Source: Flavobacteriaceae bacterium
GTDB taxonomy: Bacteria; Bacteroidota; Bacteroidia; Flavobacteriales; Flavobacteriaceae
NCBI GenBank assembly: GCA_030694835.1
Contig: JAUYUF010000085.1
Coordinates: forward strand, 1 to 41,344
Direction: 5' to 3'
Length of the DNA: 41,344 bases
Position numbers and translations under genes: made by a program. Each line of letters starts with the position of its first letter. Position 1 is the first letter of the stretch. Positions 17,600-34,893 of this stretch are shown in pieces. The notes under the pieces are model-generated. The model was not told where the DNA came from. It did no database searches and was given only the letters and a program-made list of their open reading frames with translations.

Positions 17600-17629
17600 G
17601 ACTATCTTGCAGCCGATTTAAGATTGAAC

Positions 17630-19426
17630 ATGAAGAAAATACGAAATTTTTGCATTATTGCCCACATCGACCATGGTAAAAGTACTTTGGCCGATCGTTT
17701 ATTAGAATTTACAAACACCATTACTGATCGCGAAAAAAAAGATCAGTTACTCGATAGTATGGACTTGGAACGCGAACGTGGAATTACCATTAAAAGTCAC
17801 GCAATCCAAATGGAATACATCTATAAAGGTGAAAATTATATTTTAAACTTAATTGACACTCCAGGTCACGTTGATTTTTCTTACGAAGTTTCTCGATCTA
17901 TTGCAGCTTGTGAAGGTGCTTTATTAATTGTTGATGCTGCTCAAAGTATTCAGGCGCAAACTATTTCTAATCTTTATTTAGCGTTAGAAAATGATTTAGA
18001 AATCATCCCAATTTTAAATAAAATTGACTTACCAAGTGCCAATCCAGAAGAGGTTTCAGATGATATCGTAAATCTTTTGGGTTGTAAATTAGAAGACATC
18101 ATCCATGCTAGTGGAAAAACAGGGTTTGGTATAGAAGCCATTTTAGAAGCTATTATTGAGCGAGTTCCATCACCAAAAGGGAATGAGGACGAACCATTAC
18201 AAGCTTTAATTTTTGATTCTGTTTATAATCCTTTTAGAGGGATTGAAACCTATTTTAAAGTTTTAAATGGCGTCATCAAAAAAGGACAAAAAATTAAGTT
18301 TTTAGCAACAGGAAAAGAGTATTTTGCCGAAGAAGTTGGAACTTTAAAACTAACTCAGGTTAAAAAAGACGTTATAAAAGCTGGAGACGTAGGTTACCTA
18401 ATAAGTGGAATCAAAGTAGCAAAAGAGGTGAAAGTTGGAGATACAATAACCGATGCTTTAAATCCTACAACACAGCCAATTGCTGGTTTTGAAGATGTAA
18501 AGCCAATGGTTTTTGCTGGTATTTATCCAGTTGATACCGAAGATTACGAGGAACTTCGTAACTCGATGGAAAAACTTCAATTAAACGATGCTTCCTTAGT
18601 TTATCAAACAGAAAGTTCTGCAGCTTTAGGTTTTGGATTTCGTTGTGGATTCTTGGGAATGCTACACATGGAAATCATCCAAGAACGTTTAGAGCGCGAA
18701 TATGATATGACTGTAATCACTACAGTTCCCAACGTTTCGTACAATGCTTATATCAAAAAAGATCCAACAAAAGCAATTGTTGTAAACAACCCAACGGATT
18801 TGCCAGATCCGTCAAGAATTGATCGCGTAGAAGAACCTTTTATTAAAGCAACTATCATTACAAAATCAGAATTTGTAGGCAATGTTATGAGCTTGTGTAT
18901 AGAAAAACGCGGACTTATAAAAAACCAATCCTATTTAACTACCGAACGTGTTGAATTAATTTTTGAAATGCCTTTGGCTGAAATTGTTTTCGATTTTTAT
19001 GATCGATTAAAAACAGTTTCTAAAGGATATGCATCGTTTGATTATCATCCAATAGGAATGCGTCAATCCAATTTAGTAAAAGTAGATATTCTTTTAAATG
19101 CTCAAACAGTAGATGCGCTTTCATCATTAATGCATCAAGATAATGCCCAAAATATTGGGAAAAAAATGTGTGAAAAATTGAGACAATTAATTCCAAGACA
19201 GCAATTTGATATTCCAATTCAGGCTGCAATTGGAGCAAAAATTATTTCAAGAGAAACCATCAAAGCACTCCGTAAAGATGTTACTGCAAAATGTTATGGG
19301 GGAGATATTTCGAGAAAAAGAAAACTGTTAGAAAAACAGAAAAAAGGTAAAAAACGTATGAGAATGGTTGGAAATGTTGAAATTCCTCAAGAAGCGTTTA
19401 TGGCAGTTCTTAAGCTGAACGATTAG
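17630..19426 (+). CDS. lepA: Translation elongation factor 4
   Basis: [23 protein letters not shown]1 motif, DTPGHVDF and NKIDL. C-terminal LepA domain. ATG at 17630 is preferred over the TTG at 17624. Confidence 0.97.
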
Positions 19427-19438
19427 TAACTTAAGTTA

Positions 19439-19469
19439 CAAAAAAACACGCCAATCGGCGTGTTTTTTT
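19439..19469. terminator. Bidirectional rho-independent terminator between convergent lepA and fdx
   Basis: A-run, stem acacgcc (19446-19452), loop aatc, stem ggcgtgt (19457-19463), then T-run. Confidence 0.85.
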
Positions 19470-19496: not shown

Positions 19497-19850
19497 TTAT
19501 TCGTTGTATAACCAAGCTTTTTTAGATAATAATTGCGCTTCTGTTTCTTGATGATCTTCATCAAGTACACAACAATCAACTGGACATACAGAAGCACATT
19601 GAGGCTCATCATGAAACCCTTTACACTCAGTACATTTATCAGTGATAATGAAATAAAACTCATCAGATTTAGGTTCATTCATTGCTTCAGCATCTACCTC
19701 AGAACCATTACTTGGTATAGTAACCATTCCTTTTAATCCTGTGTTATCAGAGTACGCCCACTCTGCATCTGGTTCGTAAATTGCATTGTTTGGACATTCA
19801 GACACACAAGCATCACAATTAATACAGTCCTCAGTTATTTTAATAGCCAT
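19497..19850 (-). CDS. fdx: 2[4Fe-4S] ferredoxin with Alvin-type second cluster motif and long inter-motif insert
   Basis: C9-x2-C-x2-C-x3-CP and C73-x2-C-x8-C-x3-CP. 53 residues separate the two motifs. 117 aa. Confidence 0.9.
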   Translation of the reverse strand: MAIKITEDCINCDACVSECPNNAIYEPDAEWAYSDNTGLKGMVTIPSNGSEVDAEAMNEPKSDEFYFIITDKCTECKGFHDEPQCASVCPVDCCVLDEDHQETEAQLLSKKAWLYNE

Positions 19851-19882
19851 AATTATTAATTTAATGTTTTAAACTTATACAG

Positions 19883-19890
19883 CAAAGTTA
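19883..19890 (-). promoter_or_regulatory. -7 box TAACTTTG for fdx
   Basis: The reverse complement of caaagtta matches TAnnTTTG. It ends 32 nt upstream of the fdx ATG at 19850. Confidence 0.5.
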
Positions 19891-19912
19891 TAAATAATTA
19901 TTATTTATTGTT

Positions 19913-19920
19913 TAATTTTG
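19913..19920 (+). promoter_or_regulatory. -7 box TAATTTTG for korA
   Basis: Matches TAnnTTTG. It ends 34 nt upstream of the korA ATG at 19955. It lies back-to-back with the fdx box. Confidence 0.5.
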
Positions 19921-19954
19921 CTAAAAATTTTAAAAAAGTCTAATTCATATAATT

Positions 19955-21820
19955 ATGATTTCAAACGAAGATAATATTAAAGAACACTTTGCAAGGGAAA
20001 ATCATAAAATTGACACAGCTGTTATTCGGTTTGTAGGAGATTCTGGTGATGGAATGCAATTAACTGGAACTCAATTTTCTGATACCGCTGCATTATTCGG
20101 TAATGATGTAGCAACATTTCCCAATTATCCTGCAGAAATTCGTGCTCCTCAGGGCAGTTTGTATGGGGTTTCAGGCTTCCAAGTTCAATTTGGAAGTGTA
20201 GAAGTTAGCACTCCTGGTGACGAACTAGATTTATTAGTTGCCATGAATCCTGCTGGATTAAAAACAAATTTATTTGCTGTAAAAGCTGGAGGAACAATAA
20301 TTGTTGATACAGACGCATTTAATAAGAAGAACTTAGAAAAGGCTAAATACGAAACTAATCCTTTAGAAGATGACAGTTTAAACAACTATCGTGTTATTAA
20401 AGCAGACATTTCAGGTTTAACCCGTGAAAGTCTAAAAGATTTAGGTCTTGATAATAAAAGTATTTTACGTAGTAAAAATATGTTTACACTAGGAATGGTT
20501 TACTTTATGTACAACCGTTCTTTGGAACATTCTGAAAGCTTCTTAAATAAAAAATTTAAAAGTAAACCATTAATTGCTGAAGCAAATATTAAAGCTATAA
20601 GAACAGGGTTTTATTACGCAGAAACATTAGAATTAATGTCATCTACTTATATTGTAGAACCTGCTAAAATGGAAGCCGGAACTTATCGAGTTGTTATGGG
20701 TAACGATGCAACCGCATGGGGATTTATAGCTGCTGCTCAAAAAGCTGGTTTAGATTTATTTTTAGGTTCTTATCCTATTACGCCAGCAACAGACATATTA
20801 CACGAATTGGTTAAGCATCGTCATTTTGGGATTAAAACTTTCCAAGCTGAAGATGAAATAGCTGGTATAACATCTGCCATCGGAGCTTCATTTGCAGGAA
20901 GTTTAGCAATTACAACTACTTCTGGCCCAGGTCTAGCCTTAAAAGGTGAAGCTATCGGCTTAGCAATGATTGCTGAGTTGCCTTTAGTTATTGTTGATGT
21001 TCAACGTGGTGGTCCTTCAACAGGATTACCAACTAAAACAGAACAATCTGATTTATTACAAGCTATGTATGGTAGAAATGGAGAAAGTCCTGTGATTGTT
21101 ATTGCAGCGAGTACTCCAGCCAACTGTTTTGATTTTGCTTTTGAAGCCTCAAAATTGGCCTTAGAACATATGACACCAGTTATTTTATTAACTGATGGAT
21201 TTATTGCAAATGGTTCTGCACCTTGGAAAATAGTAAGTATAAATGACTTACCTGAGATAAAAACTAAACTTGTACCAAACGGAACAACTCATTACGACGC
21301 ATATGTTAGAGATGAAGATCGTTTAGCAAGAAGTTGGGCTATTCCTGGAACACCAGGTTTAGAGCACCGTATTGGTGGTTTAGAAAAAGACAAAGTAACA
21401 GGTTGCGTAAATCAAGGTCCTGAAAACCATGAATACATGTGTAATATAAGAGCTGAAAAAGTGAGACGTGTTGCTGACTTTATTCCAAATATTGAAGCAG
21501 AATATGCACAAGAAGGTGATTTATTAGTTGTTGGTTGGGGAGGTACTTTTGGAAACATTCATGCAGCTGTTAAAGAAATGGCTGATGCAGGATATAAAAT
21601 TGGGCATGCTCAATTTAACTACATCAATCCGTTGCCAAAAAATACTGCTGAATTATTTTCTAGATACAAAAAAGTTGTTGTTTGTGAATTGAACTTAGGT
21701 CAATTAGTTAAAATGTTTAGAAGTGAATTCAGTGATATTGAATTCTCACAATACAACAAAGTTCAAGGATTACCATTTACTAAATCAGAATTAACTCAAC
21801 ATTTTAAAGGGTTAATTTAA
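19955..21820 (+). CDS. korA: 2-oxoglutarate:ferredoxin oxidoreductase, alpha subunit (fused gamma+alpha domains)
   Basis: 621 aa. N-terminal gamma-like GDSGDGMQLTG motif, followed by the pyrimidine-binding alpha region (YPITPATDILHEL). Confidence 0.88.
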   Translation: MISNEDNIKEHFARENHKIDTAVIRFVGDSGDGMQLTGTQFSDTAALFGNDVATFPNYPAEIRAPQGSLYGVSGFQVQFGSVEVSTPGDELDLLVAMNPAGLKTNLFAVKAGGTIIVDTDAFNKKNLEKAKYETNPLEDDSLNNYRVIKADISGLTRESLKDLGLDNKSILRSKNMFTLGMVYFMYNRSLEHSESFLNKKFKSKPLIAEANIKAIRTGFYYAETLELMSSTYIVEPAKMEAGTYRVVMGNDATAWGFIAAAQKAGLDLFLGSYPITPATDILHELVKHRHFGIKTFQAEDEIAGITSAIGASFAGSLAITTTSGPGLALKGEAIGLAMIAELPLVIVDVQRGGPSTGLPTKTEQSDLLQAMYGRNGESPVIVIAASTPANCFDFAFEASKLALEHMTPVILLTDGFIANGSAPWKIVSINDLPEIKTKLVPNGTTHYDAYVRDEDRLARSWAIPGTPGLEHRIGGLEKDKVTGCVNQGPENHEYMCNIRAEKVRRVADFIPNIEAEYAQEGDLLVVGWGGTFGNIHAAVKEMADAGYKIGHAQFNYINPLPKNTAELFSRYKKVVVCELNLGQLVKMFRSEFSDIEFSQYNKVQGLPFTKSELTQHFKGLI

Positions 21821-21832
21821 ATATTGAAAATT

Positions 21833-22840
21833 ATGGAAAGTAACGTTAAATATACATTCAAAGATTTTGCATCTGATCAAGAAGTAAGATGGTGTCCAGG
21901 TTGTGATGACTATGTTGTTTTAAGAGCAATGCAAAAAGCATTACCAGAAATGGGTGTCAAAAAAGAAGATGTTGTATTTGTATCCGGTATTGGATGCTCT
22001 TCACGTTTTCCCTACTATATGGATGCCTATGGATTTCATGGAATTCATGGTAGAGCACCTGGAATTGCAACTGGAGTTAAATTAGCTAATCCAAATTTAA
22101 GTGTTTGGATTATGACTGGAGATGGAGATGCCATGGCAATTGGAGGAAATCACTTCATACATTTATTAAGAAGAAATATCGATTTAAACATCGTATTGTT
22201 TAATAATGAAATTTATGGTTTAACTAAAGGTCAGTTTTCACCAACTTCATTATTGGGTCAAAAAACTAAATCATCACCATACGGTAATACACAACCTCCT
22301 TTCAATGCAGGAGAATTAGCTATTGGTGCTCGTTCACGTTTTTATGCTAGAGTTCCTGGAAATGAGCCAAAAACTATGACAGATATCTTTATTCAGGCTG
22401 AGAGATTTAAAGGGACTTCATTAATTGAAATTCTGCAAAACTGCGTTATTTTTAATGATGGTTGTTTTACTCAATATACTGATAAAGAAGTAAAATCAGA
22501 CATGCAACTATTTTTAGAACATGGCAAACCTATGATTTTTGGAAAAGAAAGCAATAAAGGTATTGTTTTAAAAGGTTTAAAATTAGAAGTTGTAACGCTA
22601 GGTGAAAATGGAATAACAGAAAATGATTTGTTAATTCATGATGCTAAAGAAGATGACTCAACCTTACACCAAATGTTAATCAGACTTAAATATCCATTAG
22701 TAATGGGTATTGTTAGAAGTGTAGAAGAGATGGCTTTTGGCGAAAGAGAAAGAGAATTGACAGAAAAAATTAAGTTAAAATCTAATTTCACATCTGTAGA
22801 TGATTTATTCTTCTCGGGTGAAACATACGAAGTAAAGTAA
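21833..22840 (+). CDS. korB: 2-oxoglutarate:ferredoxin oxidoreductase, beta (TPP-binding) subunit
   Basis: WCPGCDDY cluster/TPP region and the GDGDAMAIGGNH TPP motif. ATG at 21833 is preferred over the TTG at 21824. Confidence 0.88.
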   Translation: MESNVKYTFKDFASDQEVRWCPGCDDYVVLRAMQKALPEMGVKKEDVVFVSGIGCSSRFPYYMDAYGFHGIHGRAPGIATGVKLANPNLSVWIMTGDGDAMAIGGNHFIHLLRRNIDLNIVLFNNEIYGLTKGQFSPTSLLGQKTKSSPYGNTQPPFNAGELAIGARSRFYARVPGNEPKTMTDIFIQAERFKGTSLIEILQNCVIFNDGCFTQYTDKEVKSDMQLFLEHGKPMIFGKESNKGIVLKGLKLEVVTLGENGITENDLLIHDAKEDDSTLHQMLIRLKYPLVMGIVRSVEEMAFGERERELTEKIKLKSNFTSVDDLFFSGETYEVK

Positions 22841-22902
22841 TGAGTAAACTCATTATTTTACTTCCCCCAATTATTTTCTTAAAATCCTTAAAATTTATTT
22901 AA

Positions 22903-23253
22903 ATGGGATCAGAAGCTCTTATAGTATTTTTATTATCTGGTGTTGCCTTAGTTGCCGGCGCCAATTTTTTATCTAATTTAATTTCACATAAGTCAGATAA
23001 TCCGAGTAAAAGAGAACCTTATGAGTGTGGTATGGAAACAATTGGACCTACTTGGGTTCAATTTAAAGTTGGGTACTATTTATTCGCTATCTTATTTCTC
23101 ATCTTTGATGTAGAGATAGCTTTTCTAGTGCCATGGGCCGTTGTTTTTAAAGAAGTCGGTCTAGTTGCTTTGGTTGAAATACTTATATTCTTATTAATTC
23201 TTGGTTTAGGATTAATCTATGCTTGGAAAAAACGCGCATTACGATGGGAATAG
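22903..23253 (+). CDS. nuoA: NADH-quinone oxidoreductase-like complex, subunit A
   Basis: 116 aa with 3 TM. YECG and FDVE motifs. Confidence 0.92.
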
Positions 23254-23801
23254 AAAAGAATGAATTAGTAAATGATTTCCCTGGACAAATAATCCCAGGT
23301 GGAAATGGTGGTAATATTACCATTACTACACTAGACAAAGTGATTAATTGGGGACGCTCCAACTCACTGTGGTCTCTTTATTTTGGAACTAGCTGTTGTG
23401 CAATTGAAATGATGCAAACAGGTGCAGCTCGTCATGATTACTCAAGATTTGGATTTGAAGTGGCACGTCCTTCTCCTAGACAAGCTGATTTAATTATCAT
23501 CGCTGGAACTATTGTTAATAAAATGGCTCCTGTTTTACGTCGTTTATACGACCAAATGGCAGAACCTAAATATGTAATTGCAATGGGAGCATGTGCCATT
23601 TCAGGTGGTCCATTTTACTACAATACATACTCTGTAGTAAAAGGTGCAGATCATGTAATTCCTGTTGATGTTTATGTTCCTGGATGTCCTCCAAGACCTG
23701 AAGCGCTACTAGAAGGAATGATGATGCTTCAAGAAAAAATTAGAACAGAAAGTATGAAACACAAGGTAAATCCTATTGATGGATTTGACCAAGGATTATA
23801 A
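23244..23801 (+). CDS. nuoB: Complex I subunit B (N2 cluster)
   Basis: SCCAIEM, GACA and PGCPPRPE cysteine motifs. ATG at 23244 overlaps the nuoA end by 10 nt. The track's TTG at 23223 is less likely. Confidence 0.93.
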
Positions 23802-23811
23802 AATAATAGGT

Positions 23812-24273
23812 ATGACAAATAGCGAATTACAAACTTTAATAAACTCCTGGAATTTTGAAGTAGAATTTTCTGAAGCTGAATCTCAGTTTTTAAACATTAC
23901 TGTTAAACCTGAAAATCTACATCAACTTGGCTTACAACTTAAATCAAACAAGGAAACTTCGTTTGATTTTCTGTTTTGTGTAACTGGAATGGATTGGGGA
24001 ACTGATCTTGGAGTTGTGTATCATTTAGAATCAACTACTCATAGACATCAAATTGTTGTTAAGGTTAAAACCTCAGATAGAGAAAACCCAACTTTTGATT
24101 CTGTTTGTGATATTTGGTATACAGCAGAATTCCACGAAATGGAAGTTTTTGATTTCTTTGGAATCAAATTCAACAATCATCCAAACTTGAAGCGTTTATT
24201 TATGCCGCTAGATTGGGTTGGTTATCCGTTGAGAAAAGATTATGTAGATGAGGTTAATATGGTTATAAAATAA
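23812..24273 (+). CDS. nuoC: Complex I subunit C
   Basis: The EFHEMEVFDFFGIKF and LRKDY motifs are typical of the 30-kDa subunit. ATG at 23812 is preferred over the TTG at 23776, which overlaps nuoB. Confidence 0.9.
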   Translation: MTNSELQTLINSWNFEVEFSEAESQFLNITVKPENLHQLGLQLKSNKETSFDFLFCVTGMDWGTDLGVVYHLESTTHRHQIVVKVKTSDRENPTFDSVCDIWYTAEFHEMEVFDFFGIKFNNHPNLKRLFMPLDWVGYPLRKDYVDEVNMVIK

Positions 24274-24280
24274 CAGATTA

Positions 24281-25402
24281 ATGACAACAACAATCGAAAC
24301 TAACACTTTTAAATCTGAAGAATACTTTATCAATATGGGGCCTCAACACCCTGCAACGCACGGTGTTTTACGTCTTTTATTAACAATTGATGGAGAGATT
24401 ATTAAGAATGTGGAACCTGATTTAGGGTACATCCACCGTTCTATAGAAAAAATGTGTGAGCGTGATAGCTATCAGCAAATCGTTCACCTTACAGATCGTA
24501 TGGACTATTTATCTTCTCATATTAATAATGAGGCAGTATGTTTAACTGTAGAAAATGCATTAGGACTTGAAATTCCTGAACGTGTAAAAGTTATCAGAAC
24601 TATTCTTGCTGAACTTACACGTTTAGCTTCACACCAATTATGGTGGGGCGTAATGGGAATGGACGTAGGTGCATTAACAACTTATTTTTATGGTTTTAGA
24701 GATCGCGAATTAATCAATGATATTTTTGAAGAAACTTGTGGTGCTCGTTTAACAATGAATTACAATATTCCAGGTGGTTTAATGTTTGATATCCACCCAA
24801 ATTTTGTAAAACGTACAAAAGATTTTATTGCTCATTTCAAAACTAAATTACCAGAATATGACACCTTATTAACTGGAAACGTAATTTTCCAAAAACGTAC
24901 TCAAGGTGTTGGTATTTTAACCAAAGAAGATGCCATTTCTTTCGGAACAACAGGGCCAGTAGCGCGTGCTTCAGGTTTTTCTTGTGATATAAGAAAACAT
25001 CATCCATATAGTGCTTATGACCGCGTTCAATTTAATGAAGCTATAAGTACCGTTGGAGATACATTTACGCGTTATCAAATGCGTATTCAAGAAATGTGGG
25101 AATCTATTTCTATTATTGATCAATTAATTGATAATATTCCTGATGGCGATTTTAAAGTAGCAACAAATGCTGTAATTAAATTACCAAAAGGAGAGTTTTA
25201 TCAAAAAGTAGAAACAGCTCGTGGTGAGTTAGGAGTATTTATCGTAAGTGATGGAAAGAAAAGTCCATATCGCATGAAATTCCGTTCACCAGGATTCTCA
25301 AATCTTTCAGCTTTGAAAAAAATGGCTGTAGGAAGTAAATTAGGAGATTTAGTAGCCATCATGGCGACTTTAGATATTGTTGTACCAGATATTGACAGAT
25401 AA
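24281..25402 (+). CDS. nuoD: Complex I subunit D
   Basis: [15 protein letters not shown] and GYIHRSIEK, ending in VVPDIDR (49-kDa subunit). Confidence 0.95.
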
Positions 25403-25406
25403 AATT

Positions 25407-26474
25407 ATGAATTTACCTTTAAGTATAACAAAAAATATCCACGATTGGCTTTTCGAATTAATGTCTGCACCAATAGCGGCAGTAGTAGAAATGGTATTAA
25501 TCGCGGTGGCATTCCTGGGATTCTTTGCATTAGCAGGATTGTTGTTAGTATATATGGAGCGTAGAATCGCTGCATTTTTTCAATTGCGTTTAGGCCCTAA
25601 CCGAGTTGGACCTCAAGGATTGTTTCAAACTATTGCCGATGCTTTAAAATTAGTATCAAAAGAGTTGGTAGTAATCGATAAAGCGGATAAATTTTTATAT
25701 AATTTGGCACCTTATTTTGTAATTGTAGCTTCTTTAATGGCACTTTCAGTATTACCTTTTTCACAAGAATTTCATGCTTTTGATATCAATATTGGGGTGT
25801 TTTTCTTGTTAGCAGTTTCATCAATTGGTGTAATTGGAATTCTTTTAGGAGGATGGGCTAGTAACAACAAATATGCTTTAATTGGCGCCATGCGAAGTGG
25901 TTTACAAACTATCAGTTATGAGCTTTCTGTTGGACTTTCAATTTTAACCATTGTTTTATTAGCAGGTTCATTACAGATTTCAGAAATAATAGCTGTACAA
26001 CAAAAAGGAGGTTGGTTTATCATCCAAGGTCATATTCCGGCATTTATTGCGTTTATGATTTTTATGATAGCCGGAACTGCTGAAACCAATAGAGCACCAT
26101 TCGATTTAGTAGAAGCTGAATCAGAACTTGGAGCAGGTTTCCATACAGAATACTCTGGGATGAAATTTGCTTATTTCTTTTTAGCTGAATTTATCAACAT
26201 GTTTATTATTGCCGCTATTGGAACTATTTTGTTCTTCGGAGGTTGGTTATCACCTTTTGGAATTACAGAATCTATTCCTTTATTGGGCGTTATGTGGTTT
26301 ATGTTAAAAGTACTTGGTTTAGTTTTCTTGATGATGTGGTTCCGTTGGACGTTTCCACGTTTAAGAGTTGACCAATTATTAACCTTAGAGTGGAAATATT
26401 TATTACCAATTAACTTATTCAATATAGTGTTTATGGCAGTTATTGTTTGGTTAGGTTTAACTATAAATTTTTAG
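25407..26474 (+). CDS. nuoH: Complex I subunit H
   Basis: The [28 protein letters not shown] and EAESEL motifs. ATG at 25407 lies 4 nt after the nuoD stop. Confidence 0.95.
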
Positions 26475-26477
26475 AGG

Positions 26478-26960
26478 ATGAGTTATTTTTCAGATATATA
26501 TAACGGTGTTAAAACTTTACTTACAGGAATGTCTGTAACAGGTAAGTATTTTTTCAATGCCCGTAAAGAAATCATCACGCAACAATTTCCAGATAATCGA
26601 GCTACCTTAAAAATGTTCGATCGTTTTAGAGGTGAAGTTGTGATGCCACATGATGAGAACAATGAACACCGTTGTACAGGTTGTCAGAAATGTGAATTAG
26701 CGTGTCCTAATGGAACAATTGAAATCATTTGGGATAGAGTTGTTGATGAAGAAACAGGAAAGAAAATAAAAGTAATTGATAAACATATTTATCATCTTTC
26801 TATGTGTACCATGTGTGGATTGTGTATAGAGGCTTGTCCTACAGATGCAATTAAATGGAGTCAAAACTTCAGCAATTCATCGTATGACAGAACTCAATTG
26901 ACAAAAGTGTTGAACAAACCAGGTTCTAAAATTATGCCTGGTGTAAAAGACAAAGAATAG
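26478..26960 (+). CDS. nuoI: Complex I subunit I (2x[4Fe-4S])
   Basis: CTGCQKCELACP and CTMCGLCIEACP. Confidence 0.93.
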   Translation: MSYFSDIYNGVKTLLTGMSVTGKYFFNARKEIITQQFPDNRATLKMFDRFRGEVVMPHDENNEHRCTGCQKCELACPNGTIEIIWDRVVDEETGKKIKVIDKHIYHLSMCTMCGLCIEACPTDAIKWSQNFSNSSYDRTQLTKVLNKPGSKIMPGVKDKE

Positions 26961-26961
26961 T

Positions 26962-27477
26962 ATGGAACAAATTATATTTTACATTTTATCACTTATAATG
27001 GTGGTGTTTGCAATTGCTTCCGTTACCAGTCGTATGATTTTAAGATCAGTAGTGTATCTTTTATTTGTACTTTGTGCAATTGCAGGATTTTATTTCTTGA
27101 TTGATTATAACTACCTAGCGGCTATACAATTAACTGTTTATGCTGGAGGTATAATTGTACTGTTTATTTTCTCAGTATTATTAATTCATCATATCGAATC
27201 TAAACTTGATGTTGCCTCTTTAGGTAGAAGAATTTTAGTTGGATTAGCAAGTTTAGTTGGTGCTGGATTAACACTTTCTGTAATTTGGGCGCACCCATTT
27301 ATAGTAGCTGAAAATAGCGCGAGATCTACTGAAGTAAGAGATATCGGATTAGGAATGTTAAGTTATGGCGATGGTGGATATATACTTCCTTTTGAAGTTA
27401 TCAGTATTCTGTTATTAGCAGCTATGATTGGAGCAATTATAGTAGCAAAAGGAACTCGTTTAACCATAAAAGACTAA
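26962..27477 (+). CDS. nuoJ: Complex I subunit J
   Basis: 171-aa membrane protein in the canonical operon position. YAGGIIVLFIF motif. Confidence 0.88.
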   Translation: MEQIIFYILSLIMVVFAIASVTSRMILRSVVYLLFVLCAIAGFYFLIDYNYLAAIQLTVYAGGIIVLFIFSVLLIHHIESKLDVASLGRRILVGLASLVGAGLTLSVIWAHPFIVAENSARSTEVRDIGLGMLSYGDGGYILPFEVISILLLAAMIGAIIVAKGTRLTIKD

Positions 27478-27481
27478 TCTA

Positions 27482-27799
27482 ATGATTCAAGGAGTATCTA
27501 TATATGAAATTTTAACCGTTACAACCTTATTATTCTTTATTGGAATTTATGGTTTTATAACGCGAAAAAACTTGATTTCAATTCTACTATCTGTTGAATT
27601 GATCTTAAATTCAGTGGCAATAAATTTTGTTGTAATCAACAAATATTTATACCCTGATATGTTACAAGGAGTTTATTTTTCTGTATTTATTATTGCAGTA
27701 GCAGCCGCAGAAACGGCATTGGCTATTTCAATTATCATCAATTTATACAGATTGGTAACATCCGTAGAAGTGAAAGCAACAGAAACTATGAAGTTTTAA
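27482..27799 (+). CDS. nuoK: Complex I subunit K
   Basis: 105 aa with 3 TM. SVELILNSV and AAAETALAISI motifs. Confidence 0.9.
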   Translation: MIQGVSIYEILTVTTLLFFIGIYGFITRKNLISILLSVELILNSVAINFVVINKYLYPDMLQGVYFSVFIIAVAAAETALAISIIINLYRLVTSVEVKATETMKF

Positions 27800-27810
27800 T
27801 ATTTTAGAAA

Positions 27811-29742
27811 ATGGATTTTACATATACAATATTAATACCATTAATTCCGCTAGCTGTTTTCTTAATCTTAGGAATCGGTTCCTTAAAAATTAAAGAAAAT
27901 GTTGCTGGAATTGTGGGAGTTGCAGGTTTACTAACTTCTACTATTTTATCATACTATACCGCTTTTCAATACTTTTTCAATGTTGGAAAAGTAAATGGTA
28001 TATATCAAACGTTTGTTGAACAAACTCGTTGGATGAACTTTACTGACACGCTCCATATCGATATGGGTGTTTTAATTGATCCTATTTCTGTAATGATGTT
28101 AGTAGTTGTTTCTACGATCTCATTAATGGTTCATTTATACAGTAGAGGTTATATGCACGGAGACCAAGGTTTCACCCGTTTCTTTGCGTATTTATCCTTA
28201 TTCTCATTCTCTATGTACGGGTTGGTATTAGCTACTAACTTATTCCAGATTTATATTTTCTGGGAATTAGTGGGAGTTTCATCATTCTTATTAATTGGAT
28301 ACTATTACACAAAACCATCAGCAGTAGCTGCTTCTAAAAAAGCATTTATCGTAACACGTTTTGCAGATTTTGGTTTCTTGATGGGAATTTTAATGATTGG
28401 TTATTACACTGGTACATTTGATTTTATGACCTTAAATAACCCAACTGCTTTACAAGATTTAACTTCACCAATTATGCAAAATGCTGGAATTACCTTTATG
28501 GGATTCTCGGTAATCACTACTGCATTAGTTTTGATTTTTGCAGGTGGTGCTGGTAAATCTGCGATGTTCCCATTGCACATTTGGTTACCAGATGCAATGG
28601 AAGGTCCAACACCTGTTTCTGCCTTAATTCACGCTGCAACCATGGTTGTAGCTGGAGTATATTTAGTAGCACGTTTATTTCCAATGTTCTATTTTGTTGA
28701 AGGTGGAATTGCACTTGAAGTAGTAGCTTATGTCGGAGGATTTTCATCCCTGATTGCTGCACTTATCGCTTTAACACAACACGATATTAAACGTGTTTTG
28801 GCCTTTTCAACCATGTCACAAATTGGTTATATGATGATGGCTTTAGGTATTTCTGGGTATGGAGATGTAGATGGTTTAGGTTTTACCGCTTCGATGTTCC
28901 ACTTATTTACCCACGCAATGTTTAAAGCATTATTATTCTTAGGCGCTGGTTCTGTTATTCATGCTGTTCATAGCAATGTTTTACAAGACATGGGTGGTTT
29001 AAGAAAATATATGCCTATTACCAATATTACATTCTTAATTGCAGCTTTAGCAATTGCTGGAGTTCCTCCATTTGCAGGTTTCTTCAGTAAAGATGAAATT
29101 TTAGCTGCTGCTTATGAAAGTAACCAGTTATTATTTTGGGTAGAATGGGTTGTAGCTGGATTAACTGCTTTCTACATGTTCCGTTTATACTTTGGAATTT
29201 TCTGGGGTAAAGACACGATTTACAAACACACGCCGCATGAATCACCATTATCAATGACATTACCTTTAATGTTCTTGGCAGTTGTTTCTGCTATTGCTGG
29301 TTTTGTTCCTTTCAGCCAGTTTATAAGTCCAGATTTAGTAGGTTATACCACACATATTCACATGAATATTGCTGCGATGTCAGTTGGTGTTGGTGTGTTA
29401 GGTATTGCGATTGCTTGGATTATGTACAAAAAAGAAACCAATATTGCTGATAAAATTTCATCAGCTTTCGGATTCTTATATCAATGGACTTTCAGAAAGT
29501 TCTATATCGATGAACTATACTTGTTCATTACGCGCGAAATCATCTTCAAACGCATTGCGCAACCATTTGCATGGTTTGATAAAAAAGTTGTTGATGGCAC
29601 CATGAATTTAATTGGAAACTCTACTGTAGATGCTTCTAAGAAAATTAAAGGATTGCAATCCGGTAAAGTACAAGATTATGCCTTTGCATTTATTTCAGGG
29701 GTTGTAATTATAGTAATGGTTTTTATTTATTTCATGAACTAA
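27811..29742 (+). CDS. nuoL: Complex I subunit L (antiporter-like)
   Basis: 643 aa. WELVGVSSFLLIGYY and HIWLPDAMEGPTPVSALIHAATMV. Confidence 0.95.
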   Translation: MDFTYTILIPLIPLAVFLILGIGSLKIKENVAGIVGVAGLLTSTILSYYTAFQYFFNVGKVNGIYQTFVEQTRWMNFTDTLHIDMGVLIDPISVMMLVVVSTISLMVHLYSRGYMHGDQGFTRFFAYLSLFSFSMYGLVLATNLFQIYIFWELVGVSSFLLIGYYYTKPSAVAASKKAFIVTRFADFGFLMGILMIGYYTGTFDFMTLNNPTALQDLTSPIMQNAGITFMGFSVITTALVLIFAGGAGKSAMFPLHIWLPDAMEGPTPVSALIHAATMVVAGVYLVARLFPMFYFVEGGIALEVVAYVGGFSSLIAALIALTQHDIKRVLAFSTMSQIGYMMMALGISGYGDVDGLGFTASMFHLFTHAMFKALLFLGAGSVIHAVHSNVLQDMGGLRKYMPITNITFLIAALAIAGVPPFAGFFSKDEILAAAYESNQLLFWVEWVVAGLTAFYMFRLYFGIFWGKDTIYKHTPHESPLSMTLPLMFLAVVSAIAGFVPFSQFISPDLVGYTTHIHMNIAAMSVGVGVLGIAIAWIMYKKETNIADKISSAFGFLYQWTFRKFYIDELYLFITREIIFKRIAQPFAWFDKKVVDGTMNLIGNSTVDASKKIKGLQSGKVQDYAFAFISGVVIIVMVFIYFMN

Positions 29743-29755
29743 CGTATTAAGAATT

Positions 29756-31240
29756 ATGGATATATTATCATTATTTGTTACGGTACCTGTTTTAACGATT
29801 TTGTTTTTAGCATTTACTAAAAACTTGCAACAGGTTCGTATAGTATCGCTCACAGGTATGCTTGTTCAATTAGGAATGGCTATCAACTTACTCTTCGCTT
29901 ATTTTAGAGAAAGAGCAGTTAATACAGATATTATGGTTTTCACCAAAGATTATGTTTGGTTCGAATCATTAAACATACATTACGCTATTGGAGTTGATGG
30001 AATTTCAGTAGCGTTGATTTTACTTACGTCAATCGTAGTATTGGCAGGGGTATTTATTTCATGGAAAGTTGCTGATTTATCTAAAGAATTTTTCATCTCA
30101 TTAATCGTATTAGCAACAGGAGTTTTTGGATTCTTTATTTCTCTCGATTTATTTACGATGTTCGTTTTTTATGAAATCGCGGTAATTCCGATGTATTTAT
30201 TGATTGGAATTTGGGGTTCTGGTCCAAAAGAATATTCAGCAATGAAATTAACGCTGATGTTAATGGGAGCTTCTGCCCTTTTATTGGTAGGAATTTTAGG
30301 AATTTACTTTAATTCTAACGCTGATGGTGGTGCATTAACTTTCAATATTTTAGAAATTGCACAAGTAAATATTCCTTTTGAAGCGCAACGTTTATTCTTC
30401 CCTTTAACATTTTTAGGGTTTGCTGTTTTGGGTGCTTTATTCCCTTTTCATACTTGGTCACCAGACGGTCACGCATCTGCCCCAACGGCTGTATCGATGT
30501 TACACGCAGGTGTATTAATGAAATTAGGTGGATATGGAATTTTTAGAGTTGCCATGTATTTATTGCCACTTGGAGCAATTGATTGGTCTACATTCTTCAT
30601 TGTATTATCTTCTTTCGGAGTAATTTATGGAGCATTAGCAGCATTACGTCAAAATGATTTAAAATACATCAACGCCTATTCTTCTGTGAGTCACTTAGGA
30701 ATGGTATTAGTTGCTTTATTGATGATGAATAAAACAGCCTGGAACGGAGCAATATTACAATCGCTTTCTCACGGATTTATGACAGCACTTTTCTTCGCCT
30801 TAATTGGGATGATTTACGAAAGAACACATACTAGAGATATTCAAAAATTAGGAGGTTTACTAAAAGTATTACCTTTTATTTCTGCCACATATGTTATTGC
30901 TGGATTAGCAAATTTAGGCTTACCTGGATTTAGTGGATTCGTTGCAGAGATGAACATCTTTGTTGGAGCTTTTGAAAACGCTGATTTATTCAGAAGAGTT
31001 GCTACTGTAGTAGTAGTTTCTGCGATTGTAGTAACAGCAGTTTACATTTTAAGAGTGGTGGGTATCATGTTAATGGGGCCTGTAAAAAATGAGGAATTTA
31101 ACAACTTACCAGCATCAACTTGGTTTGAACGTTACGGAGTGTATCTGTTATTAATTCCTATTGCAGGAATGGGTATAGCACCACTTTGGTTAAGCGATAT
31201 GATTTTAGAAAGTCTAACGCCGTTTATAGCAAGATTTTAA
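29756..31240 (+). CDS. nuoM: Complex I subunit M (antiporter-like)
   Basis: 494 aa. FVFYEIAVIPMYLLIGIWG and HTWSPDGHASAPTAVSMLHAGVLMKLG. Confidence 0.95.
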   Translation: MDILSLFVTVPVLTILFLAFTKNLQQVRIVSLTGMLVQLGMAINLLFAYFRERAVNTDIMVFTKDYVWFESLNIHYAIGVDGISVALILLTSIVVLAGVFISWKVADLSKEFFISLIVLATGVFGFFISLDLFTMFVFYEIAVIPMYLLIGIWGSGPKEYSAMKLTLMLMGASALLLVGILGIYFNSNADGGALTFNILEIAQVNIPFEAQRLFFPLTFLGFAVLGALFPFHTWSPDGHASAPTAVSMLHAGVLMKLGGYGIFRVAMYLLPLGAIDWSTFFIVLSSFGVIYGALAALRQNDLKYINAYSSVSHLGMVLVALLMMNKTAWNGAILQSLSHGFMTALFFALIGMIYERTHTRDIQKLGGLLKVLPFISATYVIAGLANLGLPGFSGFVAEMNIFVGAFENADLFRRVATVVVVSAIVVTAVYILRVVGIMLMGPVKNEEFNNLPASTWFERYGVYLLLIPIAGMGIAPLWLSDMILESLTPFIARF

Positions 31241-31262
31241 TAATATTAAAATATAGAAACTA

Positions 31263-32690
31263 ATGGATTTTAGTAGTTTATTATTAATGCGTCACGAATT
31301 TATTTTAACCGCTCTTCTATTATTGATGATTGTGGCTGAAATAGTTGTAAGTGAACAAAACAAGAAGAACTTAGTCAATTTTGGCGTACTTCTTTTTGCA
31401 ATCCATACGGCTATAGGTTTATTGCCACTAGCTGATGGAGTATTATTTGGCGGAATGTTTAAAACTACCGTTTTAACACACTTTTTCAAAAGTGTATTAA
31501 ATATTGGTGTGCTTATTTTATTATTGCAATCTGCTGATTGGTTACGTGATAAAGTGGTTAGTCAACAAAAAGCAACCGAATTTTTCATGTTGATTTTCTC
31601 ATCGTTATTGGGATTATATTTCATGATTTCTGCAGGAGATTTTTTAATGTTCTACATCGGTTTAGAATTATCAACATTACCTGTTGCAGCTTTAGCAGCA
31701 TATGAATCATTAAAACAAAAATCGAGCGAGTCTGGTATCAAATTAATATTATCTGCAGCTTTGGCCTCTGGTACTTCTTTATTTGGGATTACGATGATGT
31801 ATGCCACTTCAGGATCATTATTCTTTGATATGATGACTATCACAGCATCTAACTTAACCATATTAGGTTTCTTGATGTTCTTTGCTGGTTTAGCGTTTAA
31901 AATATCGTTAGCGCCATTCCATTTTTGGACTGCTGACGTTTACGAAGGAGCACCAATTAGTGTTGCATCATATTTATCTGTTATTTCAAAAGGTGCTGCT
32001 GCATTTGTATTGATGATTTTGTTGTTTACCTTGTTTAGACCTTTAGAAAGTATTTGGGTAAATTTAATGTACGGTGTTGCTTTATTAACCATGTTTATTG
32101 GTAACTTATTTGCAATTCGTCAACAAAATTTAAAACGATTCTTAGCGTTCTCATCGATTGCACAAGCAGGTTTTATCTTATTGGGTTTACTTTCAGTTGA
32201 TCAATTAGGAGCAACTACTGTAATTTACTTTATAATGATTTATGTATTTTCTAACCTAGGAGCTTTTGGTGTGGTACAAGCCATATCAAATCAAACTGGT
32301 AAAGAAAATATTGATGATTATGATGGTTTGTACAGAACGAATCCGAAATTAAGTTTAGTAATGTTATTGGCTTTATTCTCTTTAGCGGGAATACCTCCAG
32401 TAGCTGGTTTCTTTGGCAAAATTTTCTTATTTACAGCAGCTGCATCTCAAGGATATTATTTATTAGTATTTATTGGTGTTGTGAATGTAACCATTGCATT
32501 ATACTATTACTTATTGGTAGTAAGAGCCATGTTTTTACGCAAAAGTGAAAATGCGATTCCTTACTTTAAAAGTAAATGGATGATGAAATTAGGCTTGACT
32601 ATTACCGTACTTGGTATCTTAATTATAGGTATGTACAGTCCGCTGTACGAATACATATTTGAAATTAGTAACCTTATTTTTAAATCATAA
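31263..32690 (+). CDS. nuoN: Complex I subunit N (antiporter-like)
   Basis: 475 aa. FYIGLELSTLP and PFHFWTADVYEGAP. Confidence 0.93.
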   Translation: MDFSSLLLMRHEFILTALLLLMIVAEIVVSEQNKKNLVNFGVLLFAIHTAIGLLPLADGVLFGGMFKTTVLTHFFKSVLNIGVLILLLQSADWLRDKVVSQQKATEFFMLIFSSLLGLYFMISAGDFLMFYIGLELSTLPVAALAAYESLKQKSSESGIKLILSAALASGTSLFGITMMYATSGSLFFDMMTITASNLTILGFLMFFAGLAFKISLAPFHFWTADVYEGAPISVASYLSVISKGAAAFVLMILLFTLFRPLESIWVNLMYGVALLTMFIGNLFAIRQQNLKRFLAFSSIAQAGFILLGLLSVDQLGATTVIYFIMIYVFSNLGAFGVVQAISNQTGKENIDDYDGLYRTNPKLSLVMLLALFSLAGIPPVAGFFGKIFLFTAAASQGYYLLVFIGVVNVTIALYYYLLVVRAMFLRKSENAIPYFKSKWMMKLGLTITVLGILIIGMYSPLYEYIFEISNLIFKS

Positions 32691-32693
32691 CGT

Positions 32694-33020
32694 ATGGCAC
32701 TTTTAGGATCACATCAATTTGGAGATATAGACGGACAACGCGTTACTTATGTTGAAAAAGGAACTACTCAAGAACGTGTAGATTTTCTTACTAAGCTACT
32801 TAAACACAATAATTTTGAAGTTGTAATAGGTGAAGACAAACGCAAATCAGAAGAAGAACCTCAACTATATACGGTTGCAGTTACAGATATGGTTTTTAAT
32901 CCAACTGTTTGGGTATACCAACGCCGATTAAGAACATTAGATGGAAGAATTGTTTCTCCATCGTATTGGAATCAAGTAGATGAAGATACCAAACCTCAGT
33001 ATTGGGAATATATGAAGTAA
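32694..33020 (+). CDS. Unknown 108-aa soluble protein, translationally coupled to nuoN
   Basis: The ATG lies 3 nt after the nuoN stop, on the same strand, and a strong terminator follows. No TM segment, no Cys and no motif I recognise. Rich in Trp/Tyr (WVYQ, SYWNQ, PQYWEY). Confidence 0.7.
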   Translation: MALLGSHQFGDIDGQRVTYVEKGTTQERVDFLTKLLKHNNFEVVIGEDKRKSEEEPQLYTVAVTDMVFNPTVWVYQRRLRTLDGRIVSPSYWNQVDEDTKPQYWEYMK

Positions 33021-33039
33021 TTCATTTTAAATAATAAGA

Positions 33040-33066
33040 AAGCTGCCAAATGGTAGCTTTTTTTTA
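33040..33066. terminator. Bidirectional rho-independent terminator (end of the kor-nuo unit; also serves the convergent antiporter gene)
   Basis: Stem aagctgcc (33040-33047), loop aaat, stem ggtagctt (33052-33059, one G-U pair), then a T-run. Confidence 0.8.
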
Positions 33067-34893
33067 TAAATCAGTAATTTCTTTTCCTAGGTATATAAAT
33101 TTATAACCTTTCTGAACTTTTGAAGCATCTTTAAAAGAAGTAATAATATGTATAACACCAAAATTATCTTTAATAAATAATGGAATAGAATATTTTGCTT
33201 GATTAACTTTTTCTAAAACATTATTATAATGTTCTGCAGATTTTAAGTGAAGTTCATTTATAGTTGGATAATCGCGAGCAACTTCACTTAAATTAATAAA
33301 ATCATCTGTTTTAGAAAACAATACTTCAGATGTTACACCTTTAGGATCTTTCAATTCATCTGGACTGATAAGACGGAAAGTTCCGCTTTCTCCAAAATTA
33401 GCTCCAAACTTATCGATAGCAAATTTATTAACCTCATTACTACCTGAAAGTGCTAACAAATAACCTATATCATTTAATTCAATATTTTCAAATAAATCAT
33501 CTGAATAGATATTATCTTCAAAAGCTTCTAATTGTAATTCTTTTGCTTTATTAACTAAAATAGGATTACTATCAATTAAAACAACTCTTCTCCCTTGTTC
33601 TTGTAAGTATAAAGCAATTAATCTTGAAGCTTCAGAGGCGCCTATCATTAGAACTCCTGATGAATGCTTTAAAAAAACTCCTAAAAATTTAGAAACCATC
33701 CTGGCTGTAGTAGCATTTAATAAAACAGTTCCTAAAACTACCATAAAAACTAATGGAGTTATGTATTCTGCACCTTCCTTTCCTGCTAATACTAATTTTA
33801 AACCAAATAAAGAAGCAATACCAGCCGCTACAATACCACGAGGTCCTACCCAACTTATAAATACTTTTTCTCTAAAATTTAATTCAGATTTATTGGCACT
33901 TAGAAATACACCAATTGGTCGGATTAAAAATACTATGACAAAAAATAACAATAATATTTTGATGTTTAAAAGTAATTGTAAATCAGCTATGTTGATATTT
34001 GCCGCTAATAAAATAAACAACATGGATATCAATAAAATACTGATAGTTTCTTTAAAATAAATAATATCTTTTAGTTCAGCAACATTTTTATTACCGATAA
34101 CCATTCCCATAACCACTACTGTTAATAATCCAGAATCGTGCGAAATTAAATCTGAAATTACAAAAACCAATAAAACAGTTGCCAAAGTGATTAAATTCAT
34201 CAAATAATGAGGAATTAAATTCTTTTTTATAGCAAAATACAGAGCATATGCAGCAGCAAATCCCAATGTAAAACCAGCAAGTATAATCTTACCAAATTCT
34301 GTTAAGGCCTGTAATGTATATACTTCACCATTTCCTTGTCCTACATTAATAAATTCAAAAACTAATACTGCTATTAAAGCTCCAATAGGATCAATTAGAA
34401 TACTTTCCCATTTTAAAACTGTTGAAATTTCTTTTTTTAAAGGCAAGTTTCTCAATATTGGATTAATTACTGTTGGACCAGTTACAATTATCAAAGATGA
34501 AAACAAAAATGACATAGCCCAATTAAGACCAATAAAAAAATGTACGGCAATGGCAGCGCCTATAAAGGTTACAATAGATCCTACTGTAATTAGTTTAAAA
34601 ATTACAGGACCAACCTTTTTAATCTCACTTTTCTTCAGCGTCATACTTCCTTCAAAAAGAATTACACTTATTGCTAGTGATACAAAACTGAATAATTGAT
34701 CACTAGGGAAAAGACCATTTGTTCCATTCCACATAGGTTCAATCCATTTACTCCCATCATCTGAAATTAAAGTCGAAAATGGCCCTACCAATAAACCAAT
34801 TATTATAAGTGGTAAAATTGCAGGTAATTTAGACTTCCATGCAATCCATTGTGCAAATATTCCGAGAATCACAATACTGGAAAGTTCTAACAT
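33064..34893 (-). CDS. CPA1-family Na+(K+)/H+ antiporter with C-terminal RCK/TrkA-N-like domain
   Basis: 609 aa. About 12 TM N-terminal half (NhaP-like), then a soluble Rossmann-like segment (VLMIGASEASRLIALYLQEQGRRVVLID). Confidence 0.8.
   Translation of the reverse strand: MLELSSIVILGIFAQWIAWKSKLPAILPLIIIGLLVGPFSTLISDDGSKWIEPMWNGTNGLFPSDQLFSFVSLAISVILFEGSMTLKKSEIKKVGPVIFKLITVGSIVTFIGAAIAVHFFIGLNWAMSFLFSSLIIVTGPTVINPILRNLPLKKEISTVLKWESILIDPIGALIAVLVFEFINVGQGNGEVYTLQALTEFGKIILAGFTLGFAAAYALYFAIKKNLIPHYLMNLITLATVLLVFVISDLISHDSGLLTVVVMGMVIGNKNVAELKDIIYFKETISILLISMLFILLAANINIADLQLLLNIKILLLFFVIVFLIRPIGVFLSANKSELNFREKVFISWVGPRGIVAAGIASLFGLKLVLAGKEGAEYITPLVFMVVLGTVLLNATTARMVSKFLGVFLKHSSGVLMIGASEASRLIALYLQEQGRRVVLIDSNPILVNKAKELQLEAFEDNIYSDDLFENIELNDIGYLLALSGSNEVNKFAIDKFGANFGESGTFRLISPDELKDPKGVTSEVLFSKTDDFINLSEVARDYPTINELHLKSAEHYNNVLEKVNQAKYSIPLFIKDNFGVIHIITSFKDASKVQKGYKFIYLGKEITDL

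Follow-up and report, generated by a model that had tools for sequence, protein, structure and literature searches.

A conserved fdx-korAB-nuo-orf108 cluster of Flavobacteriales as a candidate ferredoxin:menaquinone respiratory branch

The stretch of DNA analysed here, referred to as the window, comprises positions 1 to 41,344 of contig JAUYUF010000085.1 from a Flavobacteriaceae bacterium (assembly GCA_030694835.1). It carries a ferredoxin gene (fdx), the genes of a two-subunit 2-oxoacid:ferredoxin oxidoreductase (korAB), an 11-gene complex I operon (nuo) without the NuoEFG input module (N-module), and orf108, a gene for a 108-amino acid (aa) protein. The same gene order is found in 58-65 independent species-level genomes with differing flanks. 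The cluster is interpreted as a low-potential ferredoxin:menaquinone branch of respiration conserved in Flavobacteriales, a reading that is given a probability of about 0.5. Three independent lines tie 2-oxoacid:ferredoxin oxidoreductase and ferredoxin metabolism to the N-module-less complex: the natural replacement of korAB by another ferredoxin-reducing enzyme, the insertion of an rnf operon into the cluster, and a probable operator common to the fdx, korA and nuoA promoters. The reading is thus well supported by genomic context, although it is not proven.

An initial reading of the sequence, the original prediction, had proposed that a low-potential donor generator, its carrier and an N-module-less proton pump are joined in this locus. 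The comparative evidence partly supports this proposal. The conserved linkage, the enzyme replacement, the rnf insertion and the shared operator strengthen it, but its scope has to be narrowed and the idea of a ferredoxin donor was already in print.

The donor of N-module-less complex I in Bacteroidota has been a question since at least 2011, with consequences for how energy is budgeted in abundant bacteria of the sea, the soil and the gut. Gut Bacteroidia give no genomic hint as to the donor, whereas Flavobacteriales keep the donor-generating enzyme, the carrier and the pump together with a probable common operator, and the donor enzyme can be exchanged for another ferredoxin reducer. The gene order is retained in about 60 species and provides the strongest genomic clue to date as to how this respiratory pump of Bacteroidota is fed. 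A vague proposal thereby becomes a defined hypothesis whose genes are named, and the group concerned has cultured representatives in Flavobacterium and in other genera. The comparison also draws attention to orf108, an uncharacterized and conserved twelfth gene located behind nuoN in almost all of the operons inspected. If the reading is true, the respiratory entry point of ferredoxin would be overlooked by metabolic models in which NuoF is the sole marker of complex I.

Conserved linkage and natural variants of the cluster

A genome scan with NuoD yielded 80 species-level loci with NuoD identities of at least 82%, to which one Muriicola locus was added. All 80 belong to Flavobacteriales by sequence (Lutibacter, Yeosuana, Gaetbulibacter, Maribacter, Salegentibacter, Gramella, Eudoraea, Flavobacterium, Vicingus, Cryomorphaceae and others). 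The window proteins were mapped onto these loci, and the counts given here refer to loci with enough flanking sequence. In 65 of 66 loci nuoA is preceded by korA and korB. All 60 loci that could be scored for fdx have it ahead of korA in divergent orientation, and an orf108 homolog comes after nuoN in 58 of 58. Median protein identities to the window are approximately 64-85% among the related loci. The outer neighbors are not kept, with lepA present in about 11 loci and the antiporter gene standing beside orf108 in about six. Since these neighbors vary, the conserved unit extends exactly from fdx to orf108, and the antiporter lies outside the module.

Three of the flavobacterial kor-nuo contigs, with NuoD identities of 83-85%, were deposited under the names of Klebsiella pneumoniae, Lentimicrobium and Sphingobacteriaceae metagenome-assembled genomes (L075, L078 and L020). 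These labels are probably binning errors.

Locus L020 (contig DASWTL010000101.1) is the only one without korAB. Its place is taken by the gene of a 1182-aa single-chain pyruvate:ferredoxin/flavodoxin oxidoreductase (PFOR), which has the orientation of nuoA and lies about 60 nucleotides (nt) ahead of it, behind a hemerythrin gene (L020:1676-5738). Two palindromes of the korA-promoter type described below, TGATAAAAGTCA and TGACATCTATCA, lie upstream of this hemerythrin-PFOR-nuo unit at about L020:1455-1495. One ferredoxin-reducing 2-oxoacid oxidoreductase has been swapped for another at the same position. The second variant occurs in L055, from an uncultured member of the Flavobacteriaceae, where a complete rnf operon consisting of an RseC-like gene and rnfBCDGEA sits between korB and nuoA on the opposite (minus) strand (L055:2845-8325). 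Rnf is a ferredoxin:NAD+ oxidoreductase. An insertion in L024 had been considered as a second korAB pair and was rejected, as Pfam shows two unrelated open reading frames (ORFs).

KorA combines a gamma domain (POR), an alpha domain (POR_N) and domain II in one chain, and represents the alpha subunit of a two-subunit 2-oxoacid:ferredoxin oxidoreductase (OAFO/KorAB). Its partner KorB binds thiamine pyrophosphate (TPP), and there is no delta ferredoxin subunit. The nearest solved structure to KorA is 6N2N (E = 4e-78), the 2-oxoglutarate:ferredoxin oxidoreductase of Magnetococcus, compared with 1e-37 to 1e-39 for the two-subunit 2-oxoacid:ferredoxin oxidoreductases 5B46 and 5B48. For 2-oxoglutarate specificity, none of the NCBIfam equivalog models reached its cut-off with KorAB. 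KorAB is most like the 2-oxoglutarate:ferredoxin oxidoreductases, and 2-oxoglutarate is its presumed substrate.

The ferredoxin is of the Alvin/YfhL type with two [4Fe-4S] clusters. Its translation contains the motifs CxxCxxCxxxCP and CxxCx8CxxxCP, and it passes the YfhL-family model. Across the flavobacterial loci the whole protein is 66-89% identical. The nearest solved structures are 2FGO, 1BLU, 1RGV (the Thauera aromatica ferredoxin) and 2ZVS, aligned in two blocks. Between these blocks, and thus between the two cluster motifs, lies an insert of about 35 aa (residues ~27-61); Alvin/YfhL ferredoxins of known structure have 80-85 aa.

In the proposed mechanism, KorAB would oxidize 2-oxoglutarate to succinyl-CoA and CO2 and reduce the divergently encoded ferredoxin. 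The 11-subunit complex I would take electrons from the reduced ferredoxin, most plausibly at the clusters of NuoI, the likely entry point where the N-module is missing. These electrons would pass through NuoB and NuoD to menaquinone, and protons would be pumped via NuoH, J, K, L, M and N. The orf108 product could be a 12th component that either sits at the periphery of the complex as a subunit or assists in assembling the exposed top of the Q-module.

The flow of electrons could also run in the opposite direction. The proton-motive force would then drive electrons from menaquinol to ferredoxin, for KorAB acting as a 2-oxoglutarate synthase through the reductive carboxylation of succinyl-CoA and for other ferredoxin-dependent reactions. 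Complex I is reversible in principle according to textbook knowledge, and the structure nearest to KorA is the enzyme of an organism with a reverse tricarboxylic acid (TCA) cycle that works both ways. The Rnf complex encoded in L055 is likewise a reversible ferredoxin machine, often used by aerobes to make reduced ferredoxin. However, moving electrons from menaquinol (about -74 mV) to an Alvin-type ferredoxin (-450 mV or lower) is estimated to cost approximately 0.7-0.8 eV per electron pair, which is at or beyond what 4 H+ deliver at a normal proton-motive force. The PFOR of L020 fits a catabolic donor more naturally, and the window holds no other reverse-TCA genes. Reverse operation is therefore judged to be improbable.

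Promoters and a probable common operator

The divergent 104-bp region between fdx and korA carries two back-to-back TAnnTTTG (-7) boxes, TAACTTTG at 19883-19890 on the minus strand for fdx and TAATTTTG at 19913-19920 on the plus strand for korA, as originally described. A motif scan also bore out that the 62-bp spacer between korB and nuoA lacks such a box. In this AT-rich window the motif is not enriched, with 56 matches against 78 expected by chance, and a sigma-70 promoter scan was uninformative (74 matches against 78 expected). Taken alone, the boxes are weak evidence; only where they lie and the fact that relatives conserve them make them more convincing. The window and its closest relatives (L002-L004) share a compact control region of 104-115 bp that is nearly identical, with the two boxes 22 nt apart.

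Comparison of the promoters revealed a palindrome, TGAY-N4-RTCA, located at a distance of exactly 23 nt ahead of the -7 box in the korA, fdx and nuoA promoters of most relatives; examples are found in the fdx-korA regions and korB-nuoA spacers of L006, L017, L034 and L061. The composite of palindrome, 23-nt distance and TAnnTTTG is present at 54 of 64 korA, 13 of 64 fdx and 16 of 47 nuoA promoters. In the fdx cases, one site lies between the two divergent boxes. Across both strands of the loci (2.78 Mb) the composite was found 86 times, in 85 cases at a korA, fdx or nuoA promoter. In the Bacteroidetes -7 element, transcription starts approximately 7 nt downstream of the center of the box. With this start assumed, the palindrome would be centered near -41, the class II position of Crp/Fnr activators. 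Thus, this 12-bp palindrome of the TGA-N6-TCA type, at a fixed distance in 83 promoters with predicted start sites only, is probably the operator of a Crp/Fnr-type activator. The palindrome is absent from the control regions of the window (19851-19954 and 22841-22902) and from L002-L004, and this clade has lost it.

The spacer between korB and nuoA differs among the relatives. It measures 28 nt or less in 22 of 71 loci, where co-transcription of kor and nuo is therefore forced, and about 60-200 nt in most of the others. A canonical TAnnTTTG box lies 18-38 nt before the nuoA ATG in 28 of the 71 loci, and nuo therefore has its own promoter in many relatives. In the window and L002-L004 the spacer holds no canonical box but only TTATTTTAC, possibly a degenerate remnant of it. 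The only terminator-like feature inside the unit is an AU-rich hairpin of 8 bp at the korB stop codon. The same fold is predicted in L002 and L004, and not in L003. Between kor and nuo the hairpin may act by weak attenuation or as an mRNA element.

The claim of a single, "hard-wired" operon fits the window's own clade, in which a single transcript of about 13 kb, started at the korA promoter, probably covers korA through orf108. This single-transcript reading is the simplest one. The claim does not extend to the many relatives with a separate canonical -7 box before nuoA. For the family as a whole, kor and nuo would be coupled through a shared regulator as opposed to obligatory co-transcription.

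This raises the question of whether the genes are co-regulated neighbors without any direct transfer of electrons. KorAB and the ferredoxin could feed another acceptor while Nuo uses a different donor, possibly via orf108, with all of them in one Crp/Fnr-like regulon. The independent nuoA promoter of many relatives is consistent with this, a common operator proves co-regulation only, and Mangrovibacterium and other Bacteroidia have nuo and orf108 with no kor or fdx nearby. On the other hand, the linkage has survived in about 60 species although both flanks have been rearranged, korAB has been replaced by another ferredoxin-reducing enzyme at the same spot, and the short korB-nuoA gaps force co-transcription in almost a third of the loci. 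Co-regulation with no shared electron path is, on this evidence, unlikely, and the ferredoxin:menaquinone branch is preferred.

The headless complex I, its twelfth gene and the surrounding map

The operon encodes the complete core set of 11 subunits (A, B, C, D, H, I, J, K, L, M and N), each recognized by Pfam, and NuoB and NuoD also exceed their NCBIfam cut-offs. nuoH begins 4 nt past nuoD with no gene between them, so that the operon is "headless", without nuoE, nuoF and nuoG. In 78 related loci the distance from nuoD to nuoH is at most 719 nt and never leaves space for nuoEFG. These three genes were not found among the other genes of the 41-kb window; the relatives were covered as 21-kb loci only. 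In L051, nuoC and nuoD are separated by an inserted 496-aa ORF that matches nothing in Pfam (L051:8427-9917), and NuoC is longer (198 aa). A gap of about 2 kb at the same place is seen in L028, L031 and L046.

NuoEFG or another input module might be encoded elsewhere in these genomes, as split arrangements exist. The complex would then be an ordinary NADH:quinone oxidoreductase, and the nearby kor and fdx genes would reflect co-regulation of the TCA cycle with respiration only. However, the equivalent headless operon of Bacteroides fragilis gives no NADH oxidation (PMC7002350). Moreover, the position upstream of nuoA retains a 2-oxoacid:ferredoxin oxidoreductase despite the exchange of one type for another, which would be needless for an NADH enzyme. 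Instead of EFG, the operon has orf108, a conserved additional gene of its own. A distant NADH-oxidizing module is accordingly considered very unlikely.

The affinity of NuoD was dropped as a clue to the donor. NdhH of 6HUM is its best PDB sequence match, only marginally ahead, and the cyanobacterial, Thermus and mitochondrial matches all fall between E = 1e-91 and 1e-87.

The twelfth gene, orf108, starts 3 nt past nuoN. It belongs to an unannotated family without a recognizable fold. A total of 869 homologs were collected, and each one named by a source is called a "hypothetical protein". Clustered at 50% identity, the family falls into 184 groups in a library of 1.84 billion proteins, nearly all of them stand-alone proteins of 100-200 aa. 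The protein is highly conserved, with 40 of the 108 columns invariant when the flavobacterial sequences are aligned. No membrane segment was predicted by inspection. orf108 itself has no match in Pfam or NCBIfam, and Pfam searches with 29 family members gave nothing credible, nor did a profile search against PDB sequences (no E < 0.2). A first structural model, from 30 close homologs, was unusable at a predicted local distance difference test (pLDDT) score of 50. It was superseded by an AlphaFold2 model from a more diverse alignment of 41 sequences, with pLDDT 82, a predicted template-modeling (pTM) score of 0.70 and a beta-beta-alpha-beta-beta-alpha-alpha order. With this model, Foldseek returned only insignificant PII/ACT-like matches from the PDB, none of them below E = 0.2 and with TM-scores of about 0.33. 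The proposal that orf108 is an NdhS-like or other known accessory subunit was dropped, since the structure and sequence searches of the PDB gave no significant match.

The family extends beyond Flavobacteriales. Members with 35-48% identity lie directly 3′ of nuoN in the 11-gene nuo operons of the non-flavobacterial Bacteroidia L082, L083, L084, L085 (Mangrovibacterium lignilyticum), L086 and L088, while no homolog occurs within 278 nt downstream of nuoN in L087. This strict co-occurrence with nuoN suggests that orf108 could belong to the complex as a subunit, offer a docking surface or assist in assembly. A bolder idea is that orf108 is the missing electron-input or docking subunit specific to Bacteroidia, and that fdx, korAB (or PFOR) and nuo-orf108 form one Crp/Fnr-controlled regulon of Flavobacteriales. 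This would give a ferredoxin-respiring branch of the TCA cycle that yields more energy per 2-oxoglutarate than the NADH route, in mostly aerobic bacteria. At present it is a speculative proposal, and unlikely.

The linkage of kor and fdx to nuo is seen only in the flavobacterial loci, whereas the unit of nuo and orf108 is wider. In L085, L086, L087 and L088, whose NuoD is 64-68% identical to that of the window, neither kor nor fdx occurs in the 10 kb upstream of nuoA (0 of 4 loci with enough upstream sequence). The adjacency of kor and nuo is thus upheld for Flavobacteriales and fails in these four other Bacteroidia.

Several points weigh against the ferredoxin:menaquinone branch. As nuo and orf108 stand without kor or fdx within 10 kb upstream in non-flavobacterial genomes, KorAB cannot be the sole donor system for this type of enzyme. 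The synteny may partly reflect inheritance as opposed to selection, the loci being a coherent set with NuoD at least 82% identical. By residue count orf108 is mildly acidic, and in the Foldseek comparison with the PDB it resembles no known ferredoxin-docking subunit. Some Bacteroidetes have a 14-subunit complex I of clade C (PMC4453560). Finally, the literature search found no biochemical, transcriptomic or genetic data for these loci.

The gene map is given in Table 1. The ORF listing, Pfam and NCBIfam agree with the map and coordinates first proposed for fdx, korAB, the 11 nuo genes and orf108. The order is fdx on the minus strand, the divergent region, korA-korB, the spacer, nuoABCDHIJKLMN, orf108 and a strong terminator. 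From nuoA to orf108 the spacings are -10, +10, +7, +4, +3, +1, +4, +11, +13, +22 and +3 nt (with ATG starts at 23244, 23812 and 25407), within the predicted range of -10 to +22 nt. The strong terminator expected after orf108 is present, and it ends both the kor-nuo-orf108 unit and the convergent antiporter gene. The remainder of the window consists of unrelated housekeeping genes, and no tRNA and no Rfam family was found within it. An AAA_14/DUF4143 ATPase gene (15194-16336) and a weak Mrr_cat restriction-endonuclease-like gene (36802-37644) flank the region; both may be mobile or defense-related.

Table 1. Features of the fdx-korAB-nuo-orf108 cluster and its neighbors in the window.
Feature	Position	Strand	Evidence or remark
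lepA	17624-19426	+	ends at the bidirectional terminator left of the module
Bidirectional intrinsic terminator	19440-19469		common to lepA (+) and fdx (-); left module boundary; terminator scan, -19.5 kcal/mol, z = -7.6
fdx, 117 aa	19497-19850	-	NCBIfam NF033683, 93.7 bits (cut-off 86)
Divergent control region, 104 bp	19851-19954		sequence and motif positions
korA, 621 aa	19955-21820	+	PF01558 POR, PF01855 POR_N, PF17147 PFOR_II; TIGR03710, 635.9 bits (cut-off 482.75)
korB, 338 aa, TPP-binding beta subunit	21824-22840	+	PF02775 TPP_enzyme_C; TIGR02177, 242.6 bits, just below cut-off (261.9)
Small AU-rich hairpin over korB stop codon, then UUAUUUUA	22837-22857	+	-7 kcal/mol, z = -4.6
korB-nuoA spacer, 62 bp	22841-22902	+	no TAnnTTTG; carries TTATTTTAC
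nuoA	22903-23253	+	PF00507
nuoB	23244-23801	+	ATG at 23244, 10-nt overlap with nuoA; PF01058; NF005012, 247.7 bits (cut-off 116)
nuoC	23812-24273	+	ATG at 23812; PF00329
nuoD	24281-25402	+	PF00346; NF004739, 441.8 bits (cut-off 360)
nuoH	25407-26474	+	ATG at 25407; PF00146
nuoI (2x[4Fe-4S])	26478-26960	+	Fer4 families; TIGR01971, 87 bits, below cut-off (113); PDB sequence matches include NuoI/TYKY chains
nuoJ	26962-27477	+	PF00499
nuoK	27482-27799	+	PF00420
nuoL	27811-29742	+	PF00662 and PF00361
nuoM	29756-31240	+	PF00361
nuoN	31263-32690	+	PF00361
orf108	32694-33020	+	no Pfam/NCBIfam match
Strong bidirectional intrinsic terminator	about 33031-33067		-15.8 kcal/mol, z = -4.8, 12-bp core stem, run of eight U
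CPA2-type K+/H+ antiporter with TrkA_N domain	33064-34893	-	convergent on the nuo terminator
YeiH-family transporter	35047-36321	+	next after the antiporter

Comparison with known systems

The 11-subunit complex I of Bacteroidetes was already known (PMC3144371). The B. fragilis enzyme is described with an "unknown" donor (PMC7002350), and the function of the headless Nuo of Bacteroidota was still called open in 2023 (PMC10542786). The statement that its donor had not been demonstrated thus agrees with the literature. A ferredoxin donor has been proposed for Prevotella copri and used in models of Phocaeicola (PMC11405475, PMC10542786), and it is the donor most commonly suggested (PMC11405475), so that ferredoxin as the donor is not a new idea. 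The fdx-korAB-nuo linkage, its operator and the orf108 family were not found described: the literature search returned no paper on any of these, or on nuoEFG in these taxa.

The headless Nuo of Bacteroides, Prevotella and Phocaeicola, from the same class Bacteroidia, has the same subunit set and order and likewise no nuoEFG. The window operon differs from it in being joined to korAB and fdx; it also carries orf108. In B. fragilis, nuoC and nuoD are fused and the kor genes are listed at separate loci (PMC11304471), unlike in the window.

The NDH-1 complex of cyanobacteria and chloroplasts, a ferredoxin:plastoquinone oxidoreductase, is likewise a complex I core without NuoEFG. It takes electrons from ferredoxin near NdhI. 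NdhS, NdhV and NdhO are needed there for the docking of ferredoxin; none of the three was found in the window operon, whose only extra gene is orf108, with no structural likeness in the PDB. NDH-1 uses a plant-type [2Fe-2S] ferredoxin and plastoquinone, whereas the window system would use a 2x[4Fe-4S] ferredoxin and, as predicted, menaquinone.

The 2-oxoglutarate:ferredoxin oxidoreductase (KGOR, or KorAB) of Thauera aromatica is another two-subunit enzyme encoded beside an Alvin/YfhL-type 2x[4Fe-4S] ferredoxin gene. In the work of Dorner and Boll from 2002, this ferredoxin was reportedly reduced in vivo by the two-subunit KorAB, a biochemical precedent for the proposed pairing of KorAB with its neighboring ferredoxin. 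The Thauera ferredoxin feeds benzoyl-CoA reductase as opposed to a respiratory complex, and the window ferredoxin has its additional insert.

A further parallel is the Fpo complex of Methanothrix (Methanosaeta) without FpoF, a complex I homolog that lacks a soluble input module and has been proposed to oxidize ferredoxin directly (PMC4453560). It is archaeal and uses methanophenazine, unlike the window complex. The FpoC, FpoD and FpoI models gave 80.6, 316.6 and 53 bits on the window against cut-offs of 220, 600 and 180, and no gene resembling FpoF or FpoO was noticed there.

Campylobacter jejuni complex I retains NuoG, has two substitute genes for nuoE and nuoF in the operon, uses flavodoxin as the carrier and depends on a four-subunit 2-oxoglutarate oxidoreductase (OOR) encoded elsewhere. 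The window operon, in contrast, has no gene between nuoD and nuoH. According to the summary of Weerakoon and Olson 2008 given in PMC10542786, 2-oxoglutarate:acceptor oxidoreductase supplies the C. jejuni complex with electrons by way of flavodoxin. The Flavobacteriales cluster is proposed to follow the same logic, in which a 2-oxoglutarate oxidoreductase would reduce a low-potential carrier that passes electrons to a complex I not using NADH.

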